This document shows positions 5,732 to 64,000 of a stretch of 64,000 bases of DNA, in pieces (position 1 is the stretch's first letter; every line of letters begins with the position of its first letter). The stretch is from Terrimicrobiaceae bacterium (GTDB lineage: Bacteria; Verrucomicrobiota; Verrucomicrobiia; Chthoniobacterales; Terrimicrobiaceae), in assembly GCA_021463905.1 (NCBI GenBank), contig JAJTZA010000061.1, positions 225 to 64,224 of the forward strand. Direction: 5' to 3'. Both the position numbers and the translations under genes were made by a program. The notes under the pieces were generated by a model, which ran no database searches, was not told where the DNA came from, and was given only the letters and a program-made list of their open reading frames with translations.

Positions 5732-7933
5732 ATGAAGGCGGCGTTCCCACGGACCTATGAGAGCCAATACCAGCGGGAGTTGGGCCACTTGGTGCGCCGG
5801 GAAATCCAGATTGATCCGGTATCGGATGGGCTGACTCCGCAGGCCATTTTGCGCGTGGCCCGGCATGCAGGGAAGGGTGGCATTGTGAATTTGGTTCCGG
5901 GGGCCTTCTCGGGCATGGCTTTGGATCGCTCGATCGAATTGGTCAGTCGCGAGTCGGGGGCCACATCGTTTCATGGGACGATCACCATTCGCGCGCATTC
6001 CGGCTCGGTTTCGCTGAAGGGTTTGCGATTTCAACCCACGGAAGCTGCTCCTGCGCTGGTCATTCACTCCGGGTCGGTATTCTGTGAGGATTGTGAATTT
6101 TTTGGATTGGTGGAAGTGCGCGGCACGGGGCGGCTCCACATCAAAAATTGTCTTTTGCGAGTGGACGACACCGCGATTTCGCTCCACCAGCAGGCGTTTG
6201 CGGAGATCATTGGTTCGCGGATTTCCGGGAGTCCTGCCGGGGTGGCCCTGTTTGATGAAGCCTCGTGCGCGATGTTTTCCTGCCGGATGGAGCATTGTCA
6301 GGAGTCGCGCACCGGCGAGGCCGGAGCGGCCATTTTTTGCGATTCCTCCGCTCCGCATGCGCTGCTGGCCGAAGGGACGGAATTTTTTGAGAATCAGATT
6401 GGTCTCTACGTGAAATCCGCGCGTTCCGTCCAGGTTTTGGGGTGTCATTTTCGGAATCATGCGGTCTCGGCATTCATCACCGAAGGTGCGGTGGCGGAGG
6501 CCATGCTCGAGGTGGAATGCTCGCGCATCGAGGGAGGGGCGGGCGCGGAATTTCCTGCGGTCTCGCTGGGCGGTGGTCAGGCGCGCTTCTCGCATGTGAA
6601 CATTTCTGCGACGGACGGTGCGGCGTTGAGCGCGAATGGGACGGCGGTTGAGATCGAGTCCTCCCGGGTCTCCTCCTCCAACGTGGCGGCAGCGGAAGTA
6701 TCCGGCGGGACACTGCTTTCAAGAAACTCGCTCTTTTTGGGTCAGGGAGTTCCGGGGCTGCGGCTCTCGCGCGTGACAGGAACGGTCACGGGAGGGACGG
6801 TCGCGGGAGAGCCACCGGTGGCAACCGGTGAGCCTCACAGCGTCCTGCTCAAAGACGTATCAGACCATGAATCCCACCTTCCCACCAAGACCTCCAAACC
6901 TCCGAAAGATCACGAGGGAACACAGGCGATGGATCTGCTCATGGAACCGTTGGAAGATTTAATTGGGCAGGCCGAAGTCAAGGAGGAGCTGAGCCGGCTC
7001 CTCCGGCTGGCCTTCGCGGCGCGCGAACGGCGACGCCAGGGACTCTCGGATGACACGTACAGCTACTCCGGCATCCTGGTCGGACCGCCGCATTCCGGCC
7101 AGCTCCAGGCACTCCAAATTTTCGCGGCGGGCCTGCACCATCTGGATGTGTTGCAGTCCTCCGAAGTTCGTGTTCTTACGGTGGCCGACATGTTGGTTAC
7201 CGCGCCGGAATCGCTGGGATCGGGACTCCTGCTGGTAACGCAGGATGATCAGCACGAATCTCGATGGCTCTCGGAGGGAGTGGCCGACGCCCTCCTCCAA
7301 CTGAACCACGCCCTCGCCGCTCGAGGACACCTCTTCCTCGAGGGGGATCGCGAGGAGCTGCAAACCCTCCTGCGGTCCCGCACCGATCTTGCCCGTGAAT
7401 TCACCACCGAACTGCGCTTCACCCACTTCAACCCCATTGACCTCTCCACGCTTTTTGCCTCCCATTGTGAACAGGCGCAAATCCCGCTTTCCCATGACGC
7501 GAAAAAGAAAATTCCGGTCATGTTTCACAGCCTGCACGACCGCCTGCAGCGGCGGCTTTTGAATGTGGACGGAGTGGCCCATCTCTTCATTACGGCACGA
7601 CACAATTTTCTCGACCGCTGTGCGCGTTCGGGACGGTTTGACGCGGAAATGGAGGCCGAGGATATTATGGCACCGATGGATCGAGCCACATCAGCGATAC
7701 TCGAACGCTCGGCGGAGCTGGTGGGCATTTGTCCGTCCTGCCAAGCCCGCAACCCCTGGCTGGCGGGGCTGGCACCCGATTTTATCTGTTCCCACTGTGG
7801 AGCCGACTATACGACGCCGTGGGGATTTTTGCGGCACTCCAGCTACCTGCGCCATAAGGATTCTCCACAGAATTCATTCCGTACAGGTGCGATTGCCCTG
7901 CGGCGCACTCTGGCGACGATGCTGAGACGGTGA
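5732..7933 (+). CDS. Cytoplasmic right-handed beta-helix repeat protein fused to a degenerate CbbX/SpoVK-like AAA+ module and a C-terminal zinc ribbon
   Basis: 733 aa, no signal peptide. The N-terminal ~380 aa are repetitive G/S/A/V-rich beta-helix-like turns. LIGQAEVKEEL...GILVGPPHSGQLQ sits where GPPGTGKT would be. CPSC...CSHC lies near the C-terminus. Confidence 0.5.
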   Translation: MKAAFPRTYESQYQRELGHLVRREIQIDPVSDGLTPQAILRVARHAGKGGIVNLVPGAFSGMALDRSIELVSRESGATSFHGTITIRAHSGSVSLKGLRFQPTEAAPALVIHSGSVFCEDCEFFGLVEVRGTGRLHIKNCLLRVDDTAISLHQQAFAEIIGSRISGSPAGVALFDEASCAMFSCRMEHCQESRTGEAGAAIFCDSSAPHALLAEGTEFFENQIGLYVKSARSVQVLGCHFRNHAVSAFITEGAVAEAMLEVECSRIEGGAGAEFPAVSLGGGQARFSHVNISATDGAALSANGTAVEIESSRVSSSNVAAAEVSGGTLLSRNSLFLGQGVPGLRLSRVTGTVTGGTVAGEPPVATGEPHSVLLKDVSDHESHLPTKTSKPPKDHEGTQAMDLLMEPLEDLIGQAEVKEELSRLLRLAFAARERRRQGLSDDTYSYSGILVGPPHSGQLQALQIFAAGLHHLDVLQSSEVRVLTVADMLVTAPESLGSGLLLVTQDDQHESRWLSEGVADALLQLNHALAARGHLFLEGDREELQTLLRSRTDLAREFTTELRFTHFNPIDLSTLFASHCEQAQIPLSHDAKKKIPVMFHSLHDRLQRRLLNVDGVAHLFITARHNFLDRCARSGRFDAEMEAEDIMAPMDRATSAILERSAELVGICPSCQARNPWLAGLAPDFICSHCGADYTTPWGFLRHSSYLRHKDSPQNSFRTGAIALRRTLATMLRR

Positions 7934-56676: not shown

Positions 56677-56803
56677 GACAAAGACTCAACCTACCAGACC
56701 TCCGAACGATTTTCAACTGCCCGCCTAACAATCGAGCCGGATGCTTGAGTTGTTTTGACCTTGGAAACCTGGGCGAGATCCTCGCTGACAACAGCAGCCT
56801 GCC

Positions 56804-56869
56804 ACACCCCAGCCCGCCGCCGCGAGGGCGGGGTCAATGAGTTCGGCGCGGGTTTCGGTTTCGTTCATG
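56804..56869 (-). pseudogene. 5' fragment of an hsdR gene (first ~22 codons, MNETETRAELIDPALAAAGWGV)
   Basis: 63 nt (56807-56869) are identical to 60690-60752, the 5' end of the intact hsdR. After that the reading frame diverges and stops. Confidence 0.8.
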
Positions 56870-57269
56870 CGTAAAGGGTGAACGTGTTGCCTTCCCGAGT
56901 CAGTAGATTGAGAAATTTTGGGTGCAAAAATAGTTTCTCTTTACCGATCGACTTTTCCTCCAAGACGCGGATGCGCACCAACTCCTTGAGGTAGCGGGAC
57001 GCCGCCTGCCGGGCAGCGATGCCTGCATGGGTCACGTCGGCGATACGGCAGTAAGGCTTCTCGAAGATCAAGTTCACCAACTCGTGGCTGTAAATCTTCG
57101 GCACTCCTGCGCGGACGAATTCGATGGTATGCGCTGCCAGTTCGCGAATCGCCGCGATCTTGGCCGTGGTCCACGCCGCCGTCTCCGCCACCCCGCGCAG
57201 CAGATAGGTCAGCCACTCCTCCCACGCCTGCTCGCGCGTCACCCTCAGCAGCAGCCGGTAGTAGTCCGA
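56865..57269 (-). pseudogene. C-terminal fragment of a second, different Fic-family gene
   Basis: The in-frame stretch SDYYRLLLRVTREQAWEEWLTYLLRGV...wHTH-like tail is preceded by a stop (57270-57272). There is no Fic active-site region. Its stop overlaps the hsdR fragment ATG, as in the intact fic-hsdR pair. Confidence 0.65.
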
Positions 57270-57293
57270 CTAACAGCAACACGTCAATAGAAT

Positions 57294-57394
57294 GTGTCGC
57301 AATTTCTCAATTTCAGCGACACGTCTTCCCCTTCATGTCGCCGCCAAGGACATAAGGGATGCGGCCTGTCGTTGTTTTGCGCTGTCAGCGACAT
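57294..57394. repeat. Two adjacent 7-bp-arm inverted repeats built on the same core (GTGTCGC-N15-GCGACAC and ATGTCGC-N46-GCGACAT)
   Basis: Read directly: arms at 57294-57300 / 57316-57322 and 57335-57341 / 57388-57394. They lie exactly at the truncation point of the Fic fragment. Confidence 0.5.
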
Positions 57395-57473
57395 GTTGCT
57401 GCCCTTCCACGCTCAGGCACAGGCCACCAGCACCGCGATCCGTCAAGCGTAAGTCCTGGCATGATTCAAGCGG

Positions 57474-57600
57474 CTACAACTCCCCGGCGAAGGCCCGGTG
57501 CAGCAGCACCTGCTTCAACTCCGCCAGTGTCGCCGACTGCCGCGCATACCCCTCCGCCAGCCGCTACGCCCCGGTGGAGAGGGTGCCGAGGGCACCCTTG
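57474..57600 (-). pseudogene. Remnant of an hsdS 3' end (C-terminal conserved helix) with an in-frame stop
   Basis: Translates to ...GALGTLSTGA*RLAEGYARQSATLAELKQVLLHRAFAGEL*, homologous to the C-terminus of the intact hsdS. Confidence 0.7.
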
Positions 57601-57768: not shown

Positions 57769-58188
57769 TTAGCTCTTGCGGTAGCGTCGCACGGCAAAAG
57801 CACAGGCCAGCGTCCCTGCTACCAAAAACATGGTAATGGTAGAGGGTTCGGGGATAGGATTCAGGTAGTTGGTTCCGGAGGCGCTTCCCAGGGAAAAGGA
57901 ATTTACCGGTGCGTTGGTATTATCGAGCACGGCGGCCGTCCCTCCCCATGAGACGGTATTGCCCGCATCGTGAGTCACGCTATAGCCAACACCGTTGTTA
58001 TCGAGGCTGTGGCTATCGAGTCGGATGTCGGAATACATTGTCACCGCCACATCAAAAGGAGTTCCGAATGTAAACGGGATGGAAAATGCGAGTGATTGGT
58101 TGAGCCCATATCCGTCGCTTACGGGCTGATTTGCTGCCATTGATAGGGAACCATATTGCCAATCGCCAGCACTCCATTGATCCCCCAT
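57769..58188 (-). CDS. PEP-CTERM domain protein, short and without a signal peptide (probable fragment)
   Basis: C-terminal IPEPSTITMFLVAGTLACAFAVRRYRK. The N-terminus is not hydrophobic. GC looks visibly lower than the surroundings. Confidence 0.45.
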   Translation of the reverse strand: MGDQWSAGDWQYGSLSMAANQPVSDGYGLNQSLAFSIPFTFGTPFDVAVTMYSDIRLDSHSLDNNGVGYSVTHDAGNTVSWGGTAAVLDNTNAPVNSFSLGSASGTNYLNPIPEPSTITMFLVAGTLACAFAVRRYRKS

Positions 58189-58351: not shown

Positions 58352-60751
58352 TCAGGCGACTTTTGTATAGAGGTATTTTTGGAAACCGGAGAAGGCCACG
58401 CCAACGTCGCTTCCCAGGTCGGCCATGGCGTCGGCGATGGAGTCGTCGTAGCGAAGGCGTAGCAGCGGGGCGAGTTTTTCCTGGGCGAGTTCCTCCACAC
58501 CCTCAGCGACATATTGGGAAAGCACGAAGTCGAGAAAGACCTGCTGCTTGGTGTTGAAATGAGTGCTGATTTCCACCTTGGCTTTGGCGGCGCGGGCTTC
58601 ACGGGTCAGCGGTGGCAGGGCGTAGGCAACGTGGACGAGCACGTCGAAGAGGTCGCTTTTTTCCGCCTCGATAATGCGTTGCATCTCGGCAAGCTGTTCG
58701 CTGCCGAAGCCGTGTTCTTCGAGGCCATCGAGGAGTTTTTTCCGCGTATCCGGTTGACTCCACAGGGCGCGCAGTTCGTCTTCGTTTTGGAAAAACTCCG
58801 GCAGTTTTCCGAAGAGAAGTTTCATGAATTGCGCCGCGCTCATCGGCGTGCCGTCGGGGTGCCAGAAGCTGGTCATCATCATGTGCTGGATTTGGCGTTC
58901 CTTGCCGTCGGCCAGCTTCACCCTGACCTTTTTCCGGCACACGCACGGACGCTGGCCGCACCGTGGACACGGCTCCTTCGGACAGGCGCAGGGGCTTTGG
59001 CTACACACTGGGCAGGGCTGGGGCGGTGGCGTCTCGCATGCGCAGGGGGATTGGCCGCACTTTGCGCACGCTTTCGGCTCCAGCGGCTCGCCGTCCCACT
59101 GCTCGTCATGAAAATGCAGGTGCGCTTTCACGAAGTCGTAAATCGTGAAGTAGTCCTTGCCGTCGAACAGGCGGGTGCCACGTCCGATGATCTGTTTGAA
59201 CTCGATCATCGAATTGATCGGGCGCAGCAGCACGATGTTGCGGATGTTCCGTGCGTCCACGCCGGTGCTGAGCTTCTGCGACGTGGTGAGGATGGTGGGA
59301 ATGGTTTTCTCGTTGTCCTGAAAATCGCGCAGGTGCTGCTCGCCGAGTGCGCCGTCGTCGGCGGTGACGCGCTGGCAGTAGTTGGGGTCCTTGCTGGTTT
59401 TGAGCTGATTGATGAGGTCGCGCACCAGCAGCGCGTGGGCCTGGGTGGCGCAGAAGACGAGCGTCTTCTCGTTCTGGTCGATCTGCGCCATGAAGATTTC
59501 CACGCGCTTCTTCTCGCGCTCGCGGATCTCGATGCTGCGGTTGAAATCCGGCTCGTCATAGACCTTGCCGACCTCGATCTCGCCTTCCACCACGGTGTCG
59601 TCGGAGGTGTAGGTGTAGTAGTCGAGGGTGGTCTGGATTTGTTTCACGCGGAAGGGCGTGAGGAAGCCGTCGTTGATGCCGTCCTTGAGCGAATAGACGA
59701 AGACCGGCTCGCCAAAATATTTGTAAGTGTCGGCGTTGACATCGCGCTTGGGCGTGGCGGTGAGGCCGAGCTGCACGGCGGGCGCGAAGTATTCCAAAAT
59801 GCCGCGCCAGGTGCTCTCGTCGTTCGCGCCGCCGCGATGGCATTCATCAATGACAATGAAGTCGAAAAAGTCGGGCGGATACTCGCCGAACCACGGCGTC
59901 GGTTTACCGTCCTTTTCCGGCCCCGACATGAAGGTCTGGAAAATGGTAAAGAACAGACTGCCGTTTTTCGGTACGGCACCCTTTTTGCGGATGTCCTCCG
60001 GTTTGATGCGCACGCACGAGCCGGGATGACTATCTTCAAAGGCGGAGAAGGCGTTATAGGCTTGGTTCGCCAAGATGTTGCGGTCCGCCAGGAACAGAAT
60101 GCGCGGGCGGCGCTCTACGTAGGCGGTGTCTGAGCTTGTCGAAGACAGGTTCCAGCGCGAGTGAAAGAGCTTCCAAGCGATCTGGAAGGCGATGAAGGTT
60201 TTGCCCGTGCCGGTGGCCAAGGTGAGCAGGATGCGTTTCTTGTTTTCGGAAATGGCGGCCAGCACGCGCTCGATGGCGGTGTCTTGGTAGTAGCGGCCCG
60301 GATGCGAGCCGCCTTTGTCCTCGAACGGCACGTCGGCGAAACGGTCGCGCCAAGCATTGGCCTCGGCGTGGGTGTAGGCCCACAACTCGTTCGGCGTCGG
60401 GTAGCAGGGGATTTCGCCTTCCCCGCCGGTTTGCATATCCACGCGGTAGATGCCGTGGCCGTTGGTCGAGCAGGCGTAGCGCACGGCGAGCTTGGCGGCG
60501 TAGTTTTTCGCCTGAGCGAGACCCTCGGTGACGGCGGCATCGGCGGCTTTGGCCTCGATGATAGCCAGCTTGGTGTTGCGGTATTCGAGGAGGTAGTCCG
60601 CCCGCAGCGGCTGGGCACGACGTCCATGGCCTTCGATGCGACCGGGAGCGATGATGTATTCGCGTCGGATGCGGCTGCCCGGCACCACGCCCCAGCCCGC
60701 CGCCGCGAGGGCGGGGTCAATGAGTTCGGCGCGGGTTTCGGTTTCGTTCAT
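58352..60751 (-). CDS. hsdR: Type I restriction enzyme R subunit
   Basis: N-terminal PD-(D/E)xK region (ADYLLEYRNTKLAIIEAKA), helicase motifs LATGTGKT, VIDECHRG, LTATP, QIIGRGTR. Cys-rich triple repeat before the C-terminal domain. Confidence 0.9.
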   Translation of the reverse strand: MNETETRAELIDPALAAAGWGVVPGSRIRREYIIAPGRIEGHGRRAQPLRADYLLEYRNTKLAIIEAKAADAAVTEGLAQAKNYAAKLAVRYACSTNGHGIYRVDMQTGGEGEIPCYPTPNELWAYTHAEANAWRDRFADVPFEDKGGSHPGRYYQDTAIERVLAAISENKKRILLTLATGTGKTFIAFQIAWKLFHSRWNLSSTSSDTAYVERRPRILFLADRNILANQAYNAFSAFEDSHPGSCVRIKPEDIRKKGAVPKNGSLFFTIFQTFMSGPEKDGKPTPWFGEYPPDFFDFIVIDECHRGGANDESTWRGILEYFAPAVQLGLTATPKRDVNADTYKYFGEPVFVYSLKDGINDGFLTPFRVKQIQTTLDYYTYTSDDTVVEGEIEVGKVYDEPDFNRSIEIREREKKRVEIFMAQIDQNEKTLVFCATQAHALLVRDLINQLKTSKDPNYCQRVTADDGALGEQHLRDFQDNEKTIPTILTTSQKLSTGVDARNIRNIVLLRPINSMIEFKQIIGRGTRLFDGKDYFTIYDFVKAHLHFHDEQWDGEPLEPKACAKCGQSPCACETPPPQPCPVCSQSPCACPKEPCPRCGQRPCVCRKKVRVKLADGKERQIQHMMMTSFWHPDGTPMSAAQFMKLLFGKLPEFFQNEDELRALWSQPDTRKKLLDGLEEHGFGSEQLAEMQRIIEAEKSDLFDVLVHVAYALPPLTREARAAKAKVEISTHFNTKQQVFLDFVLSQYVAEGVEELAQEKLAPLLRLRYDDSIADAMADLGSDVGVAFSGFQKYLYTKVA

Positions 60752-61755
60752 GGCTGTTTGAGGGTGTAGCGTCCGGTCTTTTTGCCGCCGATTTTTTCCA
60801 CCAGACCGGCTTTAAGGAGCGGATGCAGGAGATCCATAGCGCCCTGTTTGGAAACGGCGAGTGCCGCCCACAGCTCGGCGGGGGCCATGCTGCCGTGGTC
60901 GCGCAGCAGTTTGAGTAGCAATTCCTGTTTCGGACGCAGCACCAGTTTGGCCGGAGATTTCACGCTGAAAGCCTGCACGCGGAGCCATGCCTTTTCCAAG
61001 GTCAGGCACAGGCCCTCGGCGCAGTATTCCAGCCAGCCGGTGAGGTCTTCTCCGGCCACTCGCACGGCATCCAACGCGGCGTAGTAGCCGGGGCGATCTT
61101 CCCAATAGTATTCGTCCACGGAGAAAATGTGGTGGCTGTCGAAACCGCGCCGGTAGAGTTCCCACAACGCCAGTGCCCGACCCGTGCGGCCATTGCCATC
61201 GGCGAAGGGGTGAATGTGCTCGAAGCGGTAATGCAGAATCGCGGAACTCAGCACCGGGGAAAGTTGGATGGACTCTCGGTTCCACCATTCCAGCAGCTCG
61301 AACATCAGCCCGGAGACATCGGCAGCAGGGGGCGGCACATGACGGCCCACCCGCACTTGGATTGTCCGGTAGCAACCGGCCTGCCCCTGATCCATCACAC
61401 GGTCCGCCAGCAGCCGATGCAGCGCGAACACATCCTCGTGGCGGATGGTTTTCTTCTTCGCGTGTTTTTCCACATGACGCAGCCCGGCGAAGTAGTTCAG
61501 CACCTCGCGGCTCGAACGCGGGTCGGCGGCGGCGAGTTCACGCCCTTCTTCCAAGGCCCGCACTTGCTCAAGGGTCAGCGGGTTGCCTTCAATGGCGGTG
61601 GAGGCATGACCATTGCGGGTGCGTGTGTCCTTTTGCAGCGCGGGAATCCAGGAAAGCTCCACCGCCGCGCCTTGGATTCGCTCCCGCAAGGCCGCGATCC
61701 GCTCCACCTGCGAAAGCAGGCGCGGGGTGACGCGAAACTCCGGTGCGTAGGCCAT
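60748..61755 (-). CDS. Fic-family protein (AMPylase-type), class II with an N-terminal inhibitory motif and a C-terminal wHTH
   Basis: Start at MAYAPEFRV (ATG 61755). Inhibitory STAIEG (SxxxEG), active site HPFADGNGRTGR. ATGA overlap with the hsdR start. Confidence 0.85.
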   Translation of the reverse strand: MAYAPEFRVTPRLLSQVERIAALRERIQGAAVELSWIPALQKDTRTRNGHASTAIEGNPLTLEQVRALEEGRELAAADPRSSREVLNYFAGLRHVEKHAKKKTIRHEDVFALHRLLADRVMDQGQAGCYRTIQVRVGRHVPPPAADVSGLMFELLEWWNRESIQLSPVLSSAILHYRFEHIHPFADGNGRTGRALALWELYRRGFDSHHIFSVDEYYWEDRPGYYAALDAVRVAGEDLTGWLEYCAEGLCLTLEKAWLRVQAFSVKSPAKLVLRPKQELLLKLLRDHGSMAPAELWAALAVSKQGAMDLLHPLLKAGLVEKIGGKKTGRYTLKQP

Positions 61756-61795
61756 GAATATGAGTAAAGCGTGAGTCCAGCCATGAGTCAACCCG

Positions 61796-61939
61796 CTACA
61801 ACTCCCCGGCGAAAGCGCGGTGCAGCAGCGCCTGCTGCAACTCCGCCAGCGCCGCCGACTGCCGCGCATACACCCCCGCCAGGCGTTGGGTTTCGGCGGA
61901 GAGGGCGTCGAGCTGGGCGCTGGCTTCGGTATCGTTCAT
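61796..61939 (-). pseudogene. hsdS 3'-end remnant forming a 47-codon ORF whose first 8 codons resemble an hsdR start
   Basis: MNDTEASAQLDALSAETQRLAGVYARQSAALAELQQALLHRAFAGEL. The last ~39 codons are homologous to the intact hsdS C-terminus. ATGAACGATACCGAAGCC resembles the hsdR start ATGAACGAAACCGAAACC. Confidence 0.65.
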
Positions 61940-61949
61940 TCTCCCCGGG

Positions 61950-62900
61950 CTAAGTTGTCGGACCAGCGGGTTGCGTCGGAGTCTCGTTAAGAGACTCAAG
62001 TCCTTTCAAAACGTAGGTGGTGCGAACGCGACCGTTCTTGAACAGGACGGTGGTCTTCAGCAACACAGCCTGACAACGTTCATTGAAAAACCCCCGGTTC
62101 AAGGCGATGACCTGTTCCTCGGTCAGATTCTCGTCAATTTTCCCGCCAATGCTGTGATTTTCATCGGTGACGAAATCAAACCGCCACGATTCCAACAGAA
62201 CCTCTTTGAACACACCGCGTATTTTCAAAGTCTCTTCATTGGTGATGGTTCCGGCCACACGGTTGAACGCTTCGTTCGCCTCCACAGGATTCATCGAACA
62301 GCGAAAATCGCCACTCTCCAATCGCAATCCGGCCTTCCCCTTCGCCACCACCTCGAGAAATTCCCGCAGGTTCTGAATGACCCGAGGCGCGGTGGCATCG
62401 AGTTCAGCTGCAAAGTCCTCGTCGCTGCGCCCGGCCGATCCGACGAGCTTGGTCACATGCGCCAGCGTGTCTGCCAACTGACCTTCATCGAAAAGTTCAT
62501 CGTTGTCCGCACGGGTCAGTTCCAGCCCAAATGAGCCGCGCGGCAACCCGGTGAGCAGCAAACGGGAATTGGCTTCCCCATGGCGACGACCGCGACTGCC
62601 CACCACACCGTGCCAGCGGTCTGCGTAGTCCGCCATCACCATGCTTTGGAATGGTTCAAGAACCCGTCCCGCAAAACTCGCGTCAATCCCCATAGAGCCT
62701 TGCACCGGCTCGCCGGAGAAAAACAGGACGGTCCGCGCCTCTTTGTTGCCAAGTGGCAGGGCCGCAATCTTTTCTTTCAATTCTTCCTCCCGCTCCGCGA
62801 AAGAAACCGACATGAGCGGATGATCGCCTACCAACGCCTTCAACCGCTGCGTTTCGAGCAGTTGAACCTTCAAAAATTCTCTTTGTGCGCGTGTTGTCAT
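61950..62900 (-). CDS. Hypothetical 316-aa protein, second gene of the R-M-embedded cassette
   Basis: The ATG overlaps the upstream stop (ATGA). N-terminal coiled-coil-like segment. No motif recognised. GC looks lower than in the flanking genes. Confidence 0.6.
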   Translation of the reverse strand: MTTRAQREFLKVQLLETQRLKALVGDHPLMSVSFAEREEELKEKIAALPLGNKEARTVLFFSGEPVQGSMGIDASFAGRVLEPFQSMVMADYADRWHGVVGSRGRRHGEANSRLLLTGLPRGSFGLELTRADNDELFDEGQLADTLAHVTKLVGSAGRSDEDFAAELDATAPRVIQNLREFLEVVAKGKAGLRLESGDFRCSMNPVEANEAFNRVAGTITNEETLKIRGVFKEVLLESWRFDFVTDENHSIGGKIDENLTEEQVIALNRGFFNERCQAVLLKTTVLFKNGRVRTTYVLKGLESLNETPTQPAGPTT

Positions 62901-63460
62901 GGTGTGGCCTTGGCAAGTTCCTGCCGCGCTGCCGTATCCTCAGTGGGTGTGTTCAGTTCGATTCTCAACATCCCTTTCCACACGCCCTGTCGGTTATGGG
63001 AGAAAAGGAGAATCCAGTAACGGGTCTGCTCCAGCGTGACCGTGGGGTCGAACCCGGCGTCGAAATTGTAGTGATCTAGGCTGTAATTCGCCTTCGAGAG
63101 AACCGGACTCGCAAATTCTCGAAACCGGGAGGCGAGGCCCGTCTGAAACGTCCGGTCATAACCCCAGTAAACCGTCACCAAGTCGAGATCCTTGGGTGAC
63201 CGGCTCTCTCTCGTTTCGACGTCCTCCAGAAAACTTCCATCCACCCATTGAAAGCCGTTTGTCAGGCCTTCGCCACGAAGGCGTTTACGGAAATCCAAAA
63301 ACTTGCCCAGGATCGCCCGCCTTTCGGGAGACGTGCCCAGACGCTGGCAGAGATCCAAGGTCGTGCAGGGATACGGCGACAACTGACCACGATTCACCGG
63401 ATTTCCCAAGTGCGGCGGAAGAACCAGATTATGATCGAAAGCTGGAATCGGGTTAGACAT
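62897..63460 (-). CDS. Minimal polymerase-beta-fold nucleotidyltransferase-like protein (187 aa), first gene of the R-M-embedded cassette
   Basis: ATG 63460 (the track's TTG 63535 overlaps hsdS and is less likely). MSNPIPAFDHNLVLPPHLG N-terminus. GS...DxD pattern VDGSFLEDVETRESRSPKDLDLVTVY. Confidence 0.55.
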   Translation of the reverse strand: MSNPIPAFDHNLVLPPHLGNPVNRGQLSPYPCTTLDLCQRLGTSPERRAILGKFLDFRKRLRGEGLTNGFQWVDGSFLEDVETRESRSPKDLDLVTVYWGYDRTFQTGLASRFREFASPVLSKANYSLDHYNFDAGFDPTVTLEQTRYWILLFSHNRQGVWKGMLRIELNTPTEDTAARQELAKATP

Positions 63461-63518
63461 CAAATTAGGCAATAAGGTCTCGGAAACGGTAATGGATCGA
63501 GGTTCATTAGGCGAGCCT

Positions 63519-64000
63519 TTAAAGCTCCCCGGCAAAGGCCTGGTGCAGCAGCGCCTGTTTCAACTCCGCCAGCGCCGCCGACTGCCGCGCATACACCCCC
63601 GCCAGCCGCTGTGTCTCGGCGGAAAGGGCGTCGAGCTGCGCGGCGATGCGACGTTGTTCGGGGAGGGGTGGGAGTGAAATCAGCACCGCGCCAAGCTTTG
63701 TTGGGGAGGTATGGCGAACCTTCGTGCCCGATGCCGAGTCCTGAATGGATTGCCGGACCGCAGGCAGATTGAAGACGTGAAAGAAAAACCCGTTCAGCCA
63801 CGGAACACCGGGCTTTGCGGTGACGAGGCCGAGTCGCTGGTTGTGGAGAAACTTTCCTGACTCCGGCACGATAATAGGACTGCCGAGAAGACCGGCGGCT
63901 TGTTCTGTCATTGCAACCAGCATGTCTCCTTTTGTGAGAACGTAGTCCTGTGGAATTGGACCGGCATAAAACTTTTGTTTCTCGCCCCGGTCGCGGTAGC
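63519..64000 (-). CDS. hsdS: Type I restriction-modification specificity subunit, C-terminal part; the 5' end lies outside the window
   Basis: The frame is open to the window edge (...PQDYVLTKGDMLVAMTEQ...). Conserved C-terminal helix LPPLPEQRRIAAQLDALSAETQRLAGVYARQSAALAELKQALLHQAFAGEL. Confidence 0.85.
   Translation of the reverse strand, partial: YRDRGEKQKFYAGPIPQDYVLTKGDMLVAMTEQAAGLLGSPIIVPESGKFLHNQRLGLVTAKPGVPWLNGFFFHVFNLPAVRQSIQDSASGTKVRHTSPTKLGAVLISLPPLPEQRRIAAQLDALSAETQRLAGVYARQSAALAELKQALLHQAFAGEL

Follow-up and report, generated by a model that had tools for sequence, protein, structure and literature searches.

The subject of this analysis is a two-gene cassette carried in a type I restriction-modification (R-M) operon of a Terrimicrobiaceae bacterium, in a stretch of 64,000 nucleotides (nt) of contig JAJTZA010000061.1 (positions 225 to 64,224; GenBank assembly GCA_021463905.1) that is referred to below as the window. 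Both open reading frames (ORFs) lie on the minus strand between hsdS and fic-hsdR, at the positions given in a preliminary description of this DNA that was made from the letters alone. Gene 1 (62897..63460) encodes a DUF6932 protein of 187 amino acids (aa), a predicted minimal nucleotidyltransferase (NTase) of the polymerase-beta fold, and was characterised using the ORF, Pfam, PADLOC, PHROG and AlphaFold2. Gene 2 (61950..62900) encodes its obligate partner of 316 aa, characterised using the ORF, PHROG, AlphaFold2 and Foldseek. As set out below, the cassette is a divergent member of a catalogued, putative defence family, PDC-M63, and is not of an undescribed kind.

The ATG of gene 1 at 63460 is 58 nt past the hsdS stop codon (63519), and genes 1 and 2 overlap by 4 nt in the sequence ATGA at 62897-62900. 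A 47-aa remnant of the C-terminal end of hsdS begins 10 nt past the stop of gene 2, fic starts 40 nt past this remnant, and fic and hsdR again overlap by 4 nt, so that every junction originally described was confirmed. No convincing promoter or terminator was seen between the genes of the operon, which is weak evidence. The gene 1 reading frame can be extended upstream to a TTG at 63535, and ATG 63460 was taken as the real start because all 120 homologues among the matches listed are approximately 187 aa long and begin M-x-x-P-I-P. A shorter version of gene 1 of 166 aa (P0501) is recorded at NCBI, which suggests that a start further downstream was chosen in the source annotation, so that the N-terminal IPxFDxNxVLPPHxG kept by all of the 187-aa homologues is lost. 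The GC content of the cassette, which had been judged low from hand counts, is 55.7 % versus 60.4±1.7 % in 1.5-kb windows across the window, placing it at the 0.4th percentile. At third codon positions, GC amounts to 63-64 % in the cassette and is higher in both hsdR (80 %) and fic (73 %). The composition of the cassette is foreign to the window.

Among 67 genome loci, nearly all have gene 1 immediately before gene 2, in most cases with the 4-nt ATGA overlap, and the few exceptions are contig ends or apparent pseudogenes. The same adjacency was seen in 79 of the 80 viral loci from IMG/VR, and the pairing is also found with homologues sharing 25-38 % identity, on a Bradyrhizobium plasmid, in a Pseudomonas aeruginosa replicon, in P. 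nunensis and Achromobacter, and on a metagenome contig. The two genes are thus strictly co-conserved and translationally coupled, and the pair is obligate. Synonymous divergence (dS) is saturated and non-synonymous divergence (dN) is 0.07-0.2, giving dN/dS (omega) values of approximately 0.05-0.1 for both genes (approximately 0.05-0.08 for gene 2). Both genes are under strong purifying selection, and the possibility that the two ORFs are spurious was ruled out by the dN/dS values together with the conservation.

The product of gene 1 belongs to Pfam family DUF6932 (PF22014), with an E-value of 2.4e-24 and a score of 86.8 bits versus a gathering cut-off of 27, and the match spans residues 6-168 and the complete model (positions 1-142 of 142). 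Gene 1 also matches phrog_9194 (E 7.6e-24), and all of its homologues among the matches listed had already been annotated as PF22014. The preliminary description had pointed to a G-S...D-x-D signature of NTases and to an N-terminal IPAF....LPPHLG motif, and both were borne out when conservation was scored over 54 gene 1 sequences sharing 28-91 % identity. Residues G75-S76, D91-x-D93 and D129 are conserved in 98-100 % of these sequences, the N-terminal motif, as IPxF..LPPHxG, is invariant or nearly so, and the same is true of R47, R58, E82, R87, H155, R157, W161, K162 and G163. In total, approximately 20 residues, most of them charged, are invariant. The motif sought was hG[GS], followed after approximately 10-15 residues by DxD and then by a carboxylate on the third strand. 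In the AlphaFold2 model of gene 1 (predicted local distance difference test score, pLDDT, 94.6), a strand (69-74) leads into G75-S76, a helix follows (81-85), D91 and D93 are associated with the next strand (92-98), and D129 with a further strand (128-134). Hence, gene 1 fits the pattern of the polymerase-beta NTases, with hG[GS], DxD at the next strand and the third carboxylate on the third strand.

When the gene 1 model was compared with the PDB using Foldseek, minimal NTases occupied the top ranks, namely 2rff and the MNT antitoxin of 7ae2 (7ae2_B) and 7ae9 (E 0.02-0.09), and further matches were to AadA, FAM46 and MenT3 (E ~1). Overall, the E-values ranged from 0.02 to 1 and the TM-scores from 0.2 to 0.4. 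Searches of the PDB sequences with gene 1, gene 2 and their family profiles found nothing meaningful, NCBIfam has no family for either gene, and a literature search revealed no paper naming DUF6932. Mainly because of the motifs and the order of the secondary structure elements, we accept gene 1 as a predicted, catalytically competent minimal NTase of the polymerase-beta type that would belong to a distinct family.

Though gene 2 was initially called an orphan, it has 535 matches in clusters formed at 90 % identity, the best 120 of which are at least 79 % identical to it, and its family comprises 905 clusters at 50 % identity (E <= 1e-3), nearly all of approximately 300 aa. Gene 2 matches phrog_18731 (E 2.5e-24), and no Pfam model matches either gene 2 or any of 87 diverse relatives. 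The AlphaFold2 model (pLDDT 93.8) consists of a helical hairpin (residues 3-47), which corresponds to the N-terminal coiled-coil-like stretch noted earlier and may mediate dimerisation, an alpha/beta middle domain and a C-terminal barrel resembling the oligonucleotide/oligosaccharide-binding (OB) fold, in which the elements are in the order beta1-beta2-beta3-alpha-beta4-beta5. In Foldseek comparisons with the PDB no match to the whole chain was found, and only the C-terminal barrel was matched, to the OB folds of the single-stranded DNA-binding protein Rim1, IF1, RPA and CspA (E 4e-3 to 0.1). Among the viral models in BFVD, three phage proteins match almost the whole of gene 2 (E 2.6e-13 to 4e-8). 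The best of them is annotated as containing DUF6575, a domain that may or may not coincide with the region aligned and that is reportedly found in one of the systems validated by Vassallo and colleagues in 2022. A tblastn search of the GenBank phage records with gene 2 and its Escherichia coli homologue returned no match.

The conserved positions of gene 2 are almost exclusively glycine and hydrophobic residues, together with an invariant serine, Ser123, in an LPRG-S-FG turn of the middle domain. Because almost no polar residue other than Ser123 is conserved, gene 2 looks like a scaffold, a sensor or a substrate rather than an enzyme. Two enzymatic assignments were considered and rejected. A GS...DxD-like string at 122-135, which might have indicated a second NTase, is not conserved, and the GSFG sequence is not the GxSxG nucleophile elbow of a serine hydrolase. 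Neither protein includes the Rx4-6H motif of HEPN proteins, a P-loop or a transmembrane segment, as originally reported for gene 2 (the maximum Kyte-Doolittle value over 19 residues is 0.69).

The pair was previously described as an undescribed defence or toxin-antitoxin (TA) pair. This is incorrect, as gene 1 matches PDC-M63A and relatives of gene 2 match PDC-M63B. PDC-M63 is a PADLOC candidate that was identified by guilt-by-embedding, from its place in operons of the BREX, DISARM and type I R-M systems, and was defined as the cassette FAM_00167>>FAM_00523, with 45 RefSeq instances (Payne et al., bioRxiv 10.1101/2024.01.29.577857). The PDC-M63A family FAM_00167 also occurs in a second cassette, FAM_00167>>FAM_01519, with 269 instances, which was rejected by the authors, the table giving no reason (bioRxiv 10.1101/2024.01.29.577857, supplementary table 8), and gene 2 of the window could belong to either partner family, FAM_00523 or FAM_01519. 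In our searches with the PADLOC models, gene 1 matched PDC-M63A (PDLC04744) at E 6.4e-11, and distant gene 1 homologues matched it at approximately 1e-10. The part of the catalogue search that concerned gene 2 was less clear, the window protein matching two PDC-M63B models weakly (E 0.007 and 0.013), with residues 114-195 co-linear with model positions 117-197. In the wider gene 2 family, 7 of the 87 members match PDC-M63B (best E 1.5e-8) and 6 of the 87 match PDC-M32A. The homology of gene 2 to PDC-M63B is thus transitive and not direct, because its own match is weak and those of its relatives are stronger, and PADLOC might well not call the window copy of gene 2, its own match at E 0.007 being weak. 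Like the window pair, PDC-M63 has an A protein of the DUF6932 type and, after it, a B protein (approximately 305 aa), and is embedded in defence operons. The A and B genes are adjacent on the same strand, as are those in the window, where they overlap by 4 nt. The difference is that the window clade is divergent, being found mostly in the Planctomycetes-Verrucomicrobia-Chlamydiae (PVC) superphylum, and PDC-M63 itself is a computational candidate only.

Downstream of the pair, fic (60748..61755, minus strand) encodes a SoFic-type AMPylase (Pfam Fic, E 1.2e-20; PADLOC SoFic, E 1.2e-53), which is called as 335 aa in metagenome contig L001. The last gene of the operon, hsdR (58352..60751, minus strand), is an ORF of 799 aa for a type I restriction subunit of the EcoEI_R_C type, identified from the domains of relatives, as homologues sharing 70-79 % identity in related loci contain ResIII, SWI2_SNF2 and EcoEI_R_C domains. 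With SoFic and the pair, the hsd operon of the window thus carries two defence-type units of cargo that are separate from each other, and the order pair-fic-hsdR was also found in loci L040 and L053.

Direct repeats of the 3' end of hsdS bracket the cassette, all in the minus orientation. Copy 1 (63487..63635), detected by repeat alignment and a Methylase_S match, is the 3' end of the full-length hsdS (stop at 63519) and forms the upstream boundary. Copy 2 (61764..61912), detected by repeat alignment, is the hsdS remnant between gene 2 and fic and forms the downstream boundary; its 47-aa ORF (61796-61939) is likewise called as a gene in L001 and L002, two metagenome contigs that are identical. 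Further downstream, past hsdR and a small gene, is a scar (56802..57590, minus strand) recognised from the repeats and a SoFic-like_C match (E 6.9e-32). It includes a third copy of the hsdS 3' end (57442-57590), a 125-aa remnant of a SoFic-like C-terminus (56865-57242) and a 68-nt copy (56802-56869) of the junction between the fic stop and the hsdR start that is 99 % identical to 60685-60752. This scar looks like a decayed second unit made up of an hsdS 3' end, fic and an hsdR 5' end, left by an earlier cargo swap or deletion. The small gene between hsdR and the scar, a 139-aa ORF at 57769-58188 (minus strand), ends in what was assigned by eye as a PEP-CTERM-like sorting signal (..PEPSTITMFLVAGTLACAFAVRRYRKS).

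When the three copies were aligned, the repeated unit corresponded to the last 110-125 nt of hsdS. Because copies 2 and 3 share a common junction into fic, the hsdS-fic arrangement is considered the older one, with the pair inserted upstream of fic. Because copies 1 and 2 lie on either side of the cassette, it is considered an insertion and not an ancestral part of the operon. Cargo flanked by duplicated hsdS 3' ends is likewise seen in other loci (L007 3191-3894; L025 196-3079; L046 1267-1745; L068 895-3400), which suggests that the conserved hsdS 3' end may be a recombination hot spot for the gain or exchange of cargo in R-M operons. The cassette would have entered the operon of the window by recombination at this end.

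Association of the pair with R-M genes was assessed in the long genome loci, defined as the 40 loci of at least 12 kb. Type I R-M genes on the same strand surround the pair in 27 of the 40, and at least two subunits are present in 24, so that in about 60 % of the long loci the pair is carried inside a type I R-M operon. Three operon layouts were found, namely M-S-pair-R with an EcoEI_R_C-type HsdR of approximately 790 aa, which is the type seen in the window, M-S-...-pair-R with an HSDR_N/T1RH-type HsdR of approximately 1045 aa, and R-S-pair-M, and metagenome contigs have the pair embedded in hsd operons in the same way. In 58 non-redundant viral loci, the commonest neighbouring families were Peptidase_S24 and HTH_3 (30 ORFs each), as in CI-like repressors, followed by YdaT, CI, CII, RecE and integrase. 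In a lambdoid prophage of E. coli sequence type (ST) 540 (L171 5294-7816, the pair at 6315-7816; NZ_CP007391.1), the DUF6932 gene and a 305-aa partner are directly downstream of, and on the same strand as, a cI-like repressor gene, in the arrangement ren-P-O-cII-cro <- -> cI(LexA family)-DUF6932-partner ... gam-bet-exo. This position is the rexAB slot of lambda. The copy on the Bradyrhizobium plasmid adjoins a ThiF/multiubiquitin system. The pair is rare in E. coli, being present in 34 of 5426 complete genomes. The pair is therefore strongly associated with type I R-M operons and with the immunity regions of prophages. More distant homologues are solitary among housekeeping genes, which in part goes against the original interpretation. 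A PADLOC survey of the neighbours in the distant loci returned mostly redundant models for type I specificity subunits and added nothing.

A stand-alone macrodomain of 150 aa recurs beside the pair, on either side of it, within hsd operons (L005 6910-7362; L010 3993-4457; L017 and L018). It matches the N-terminal macrodomain of DarG (E 1e-70 to 1e-73), aligning with positions 1-147 of the 329 of the model only, and no DarT-like gene is present in the Pfam-annotated gene tables of the loci that carry it. It is a predicted orphan DarG-like ADP-ribose hydrolase. That the pair might stand in for the missing DarT was considered and rejected, as neither the window nor most of the loci have the macrodomain gene, and the side of the pair on which it lies is variable.

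The pair matches no characterised NTase TA system, as there is no HEPN partner and no family other than DUF6932. It can be compared with MNT-HEPN, a type VII TA system in which the NTase gene comes first and the partner gene second and the NTase neutralises the partner by AMPylation. The likeness lies in a small MNT-type NTase encoded first, in the overlapping partner gene, and in the MNT proteins at the top of the Foldseek ranks for gene 1. However, gene 2 has neither the HEPN fold, a match to a HEPN family nor Rx4-6H, and the similarity of gene 1 to MNT proteins is weak (E 0.02-0.09). Gene 1 has, in addition, a conserved N-terminal extension of 30 residues and a C-terminal SHxRxxxWKG motif, features that may set it apart from the MNT proteins. 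RexAB of lambda is also a two-gene module, and relatives of the pair, though not the window copy, are found directly behind cI. RexB is a membrane protein, whereas gene 2 has no transmembrane segments, RexA is absent among the Foldseek PDB matches listed, and NTase-based enzymology would be expected for the pair. AbiE and MenAT are likewise two-gene conflict modules with an NTase as the enzyme, but the Pfam match of gene 1 is to DUF6932 only and not to DUF1814, the gene order is reversed, and gene 2 is not linked to the AbiEi or MenA antitoxins by any family match. Neither protein matched DUF1814, AbiEii or AbiEi in Pfam, NCBIfam or PADLOC. With PrrC, RloC and TgvAB the pair shares a position between hsd genes, where it is presumably co-transcribed. 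Its domains are unrelated to theirs, there being no ABC (ATP-binding cassette)-ATPase head, anticodon nuclease or P-loop and no GmrSD-type DUF262/DUF1524. Outside type I R-M operons, embedded PrrC is hardly ever found (Payne et al., bioRxiv 10.1101/2024.01.29.577857), and TgvAB is a validated, independent two-gene defence system inside a type I R-M operon (PMC11411939).

The reading that we favour, at a probability of about 0.5, is that the two genes form an autonomous conflict module of the PDC-M63 family, one that moves horizontally and probably acts in phage exclusion or abortive infection (Abi) in a manner resembling type VII TA systems. A function in defence and the substrate are inferred here, and either protein could be the toxic one. 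The pair occupies slots that would be constitutively co-expressed with immunity genes, behind hsdS in R-M operons and behind cI in lambdoid prophages. By analogy with MNT-HEPN, the NTase would nucleotidylylate its partner, with Ser123 as a candidate site; alternatively, in a scheme like that of the MenT and AbiEii toxins, the NTase could act on a tRNA or on the end of a nucleic acid that is presented by the OB domain. The balance within the pair would then be disturbed when the cell is infected or the module is lost, and growth would be arrested.

Several observations weigh against this reading. For immune genes, the conservation of both proteins is unusually high, at approximately 85 % amino acid identity with dS saturated. 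In structure, gene 1 resembles known NTases only weakly, with no Foldseek match at E <= 0.001 (all E >= 0.02), the OB assignment for gene 2 depends on E-values of 4e-3 to 0.1, and gene 2 is mildly acidic (pI 5.4), which is atypical for a nucleic-acid binder. In Bacteroidota, Janthinobacterium, Pseudomonas and Achromobacter, homologues sharing approximately 32-47 % identity form solitary two-gene islets amid housekeeping genes with no defence neighbours. The literature holds no experiment demonstrating a function for the family of the pair, and the sole experimental test of PDC-M63AB was negative, deletion of the prophage-borne genes in their native host, E. coli NILS69, having revealed no defence against 10 phages (bioRxiv 10.1101/2024.12.20.629700).

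The islets and the negative deletion experiment are what would be anticipated if the pair were a plain addiction module, a TA system that stabilises its carrier, be it R-M operon, prophage, plasmid or islet, and has no direct anti-phage activity. The small size of the pair, the overlapping genes, the patchy distribution across phyla, the plasmid and prophage copies and the order of NTase then partner, which resembles that in MNT-HEPN, all fit such a role. We nevertheless consider it unlikely, as the preferred slots, behind cI and inside hsd operons, are typical of exclusion genes and no known toxin or antitoxin is similar to either protein; moreover, TA and abortive-infection roles are mutually compatible. 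The location of the pair raises the question of whether it instead serves the type I R-M enzyme as an accessory, either a PrrC-like guard or a modifier that nucleotidylylates Hsd subunits or the DNA ends produced by restriction. In the three hsd layouts the pair is on the same strand, between hsdS and the last hsd gene, it has been transferred together with hsd genes across phyla, PrrC provides a precedent in being almost exclusive to type I R-M operons, and the accompanying SoFic and DarG-like macrodomain are enzymes of nucleotide-linked protein or DNA modification. However, the pair remains complete where there are no R-M genes nearby, in prophage immunity regions, on plasmids and in solitary islets, and this weakens the guard model. 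The hsdS 3' repeats around this and other cargo point to a general recombination hot spot and not to a specific coupling, and there is no ABC-ATPase or anticodon-nuclease domain. Such an accessory role appears distinctly unlikely.

A role outside conflict altogether, for example as a nucleic-acid end-tailing or repair enzyme of OB and NTase components that is carried by mobile DNA, would account for the strong purifying selection and for the housekeeping neighbours in some branches, and a nucleic-acid enzyme could plausibly be built from an OB-like barrel and an NTase. It is, however, difficult to reconcile with a rare and patchy distribution (the 34 E. coli genomes noted above), with a composition foreign to the window, or with the enrichment in R-M operons and prophage immunity regions, and none of the related families is annotated with a housekeeping role. 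We regard it as very improbable. Returning to the exclusion module, a stronger version would hold that the pair is a genuine, widespread anti-phage system that uses a new NTase logic, in which an NTase family not characterised before modifies its own sensor or toxin partner, or a nucleic acid that the partner presents. The rexAB and hsdS slots would be interchangeable for it, and in the latter it may act as a second line when restriction fails. We put this forward tentatively, as a possibility that is open to considerable doubt.

At present, the cassette stands as a catalogued candidate whose function we infer, and not as the discovery of a new kind of system. The family is large and conserved and the models of both proteins are confident, so clean experiments can be designed now. 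The repeats of the hsdS 3' end suggest a simple recombination route for the uptake and exchange of defence cargo by R-M operons. Should the pair prove to be a working exclusion system, it would be an enzymatically new, NTase-based member of the bacterial immune systems and would connect the type I R-M operon with the cI-rex region of prophages, both of them classic slots for cargo.

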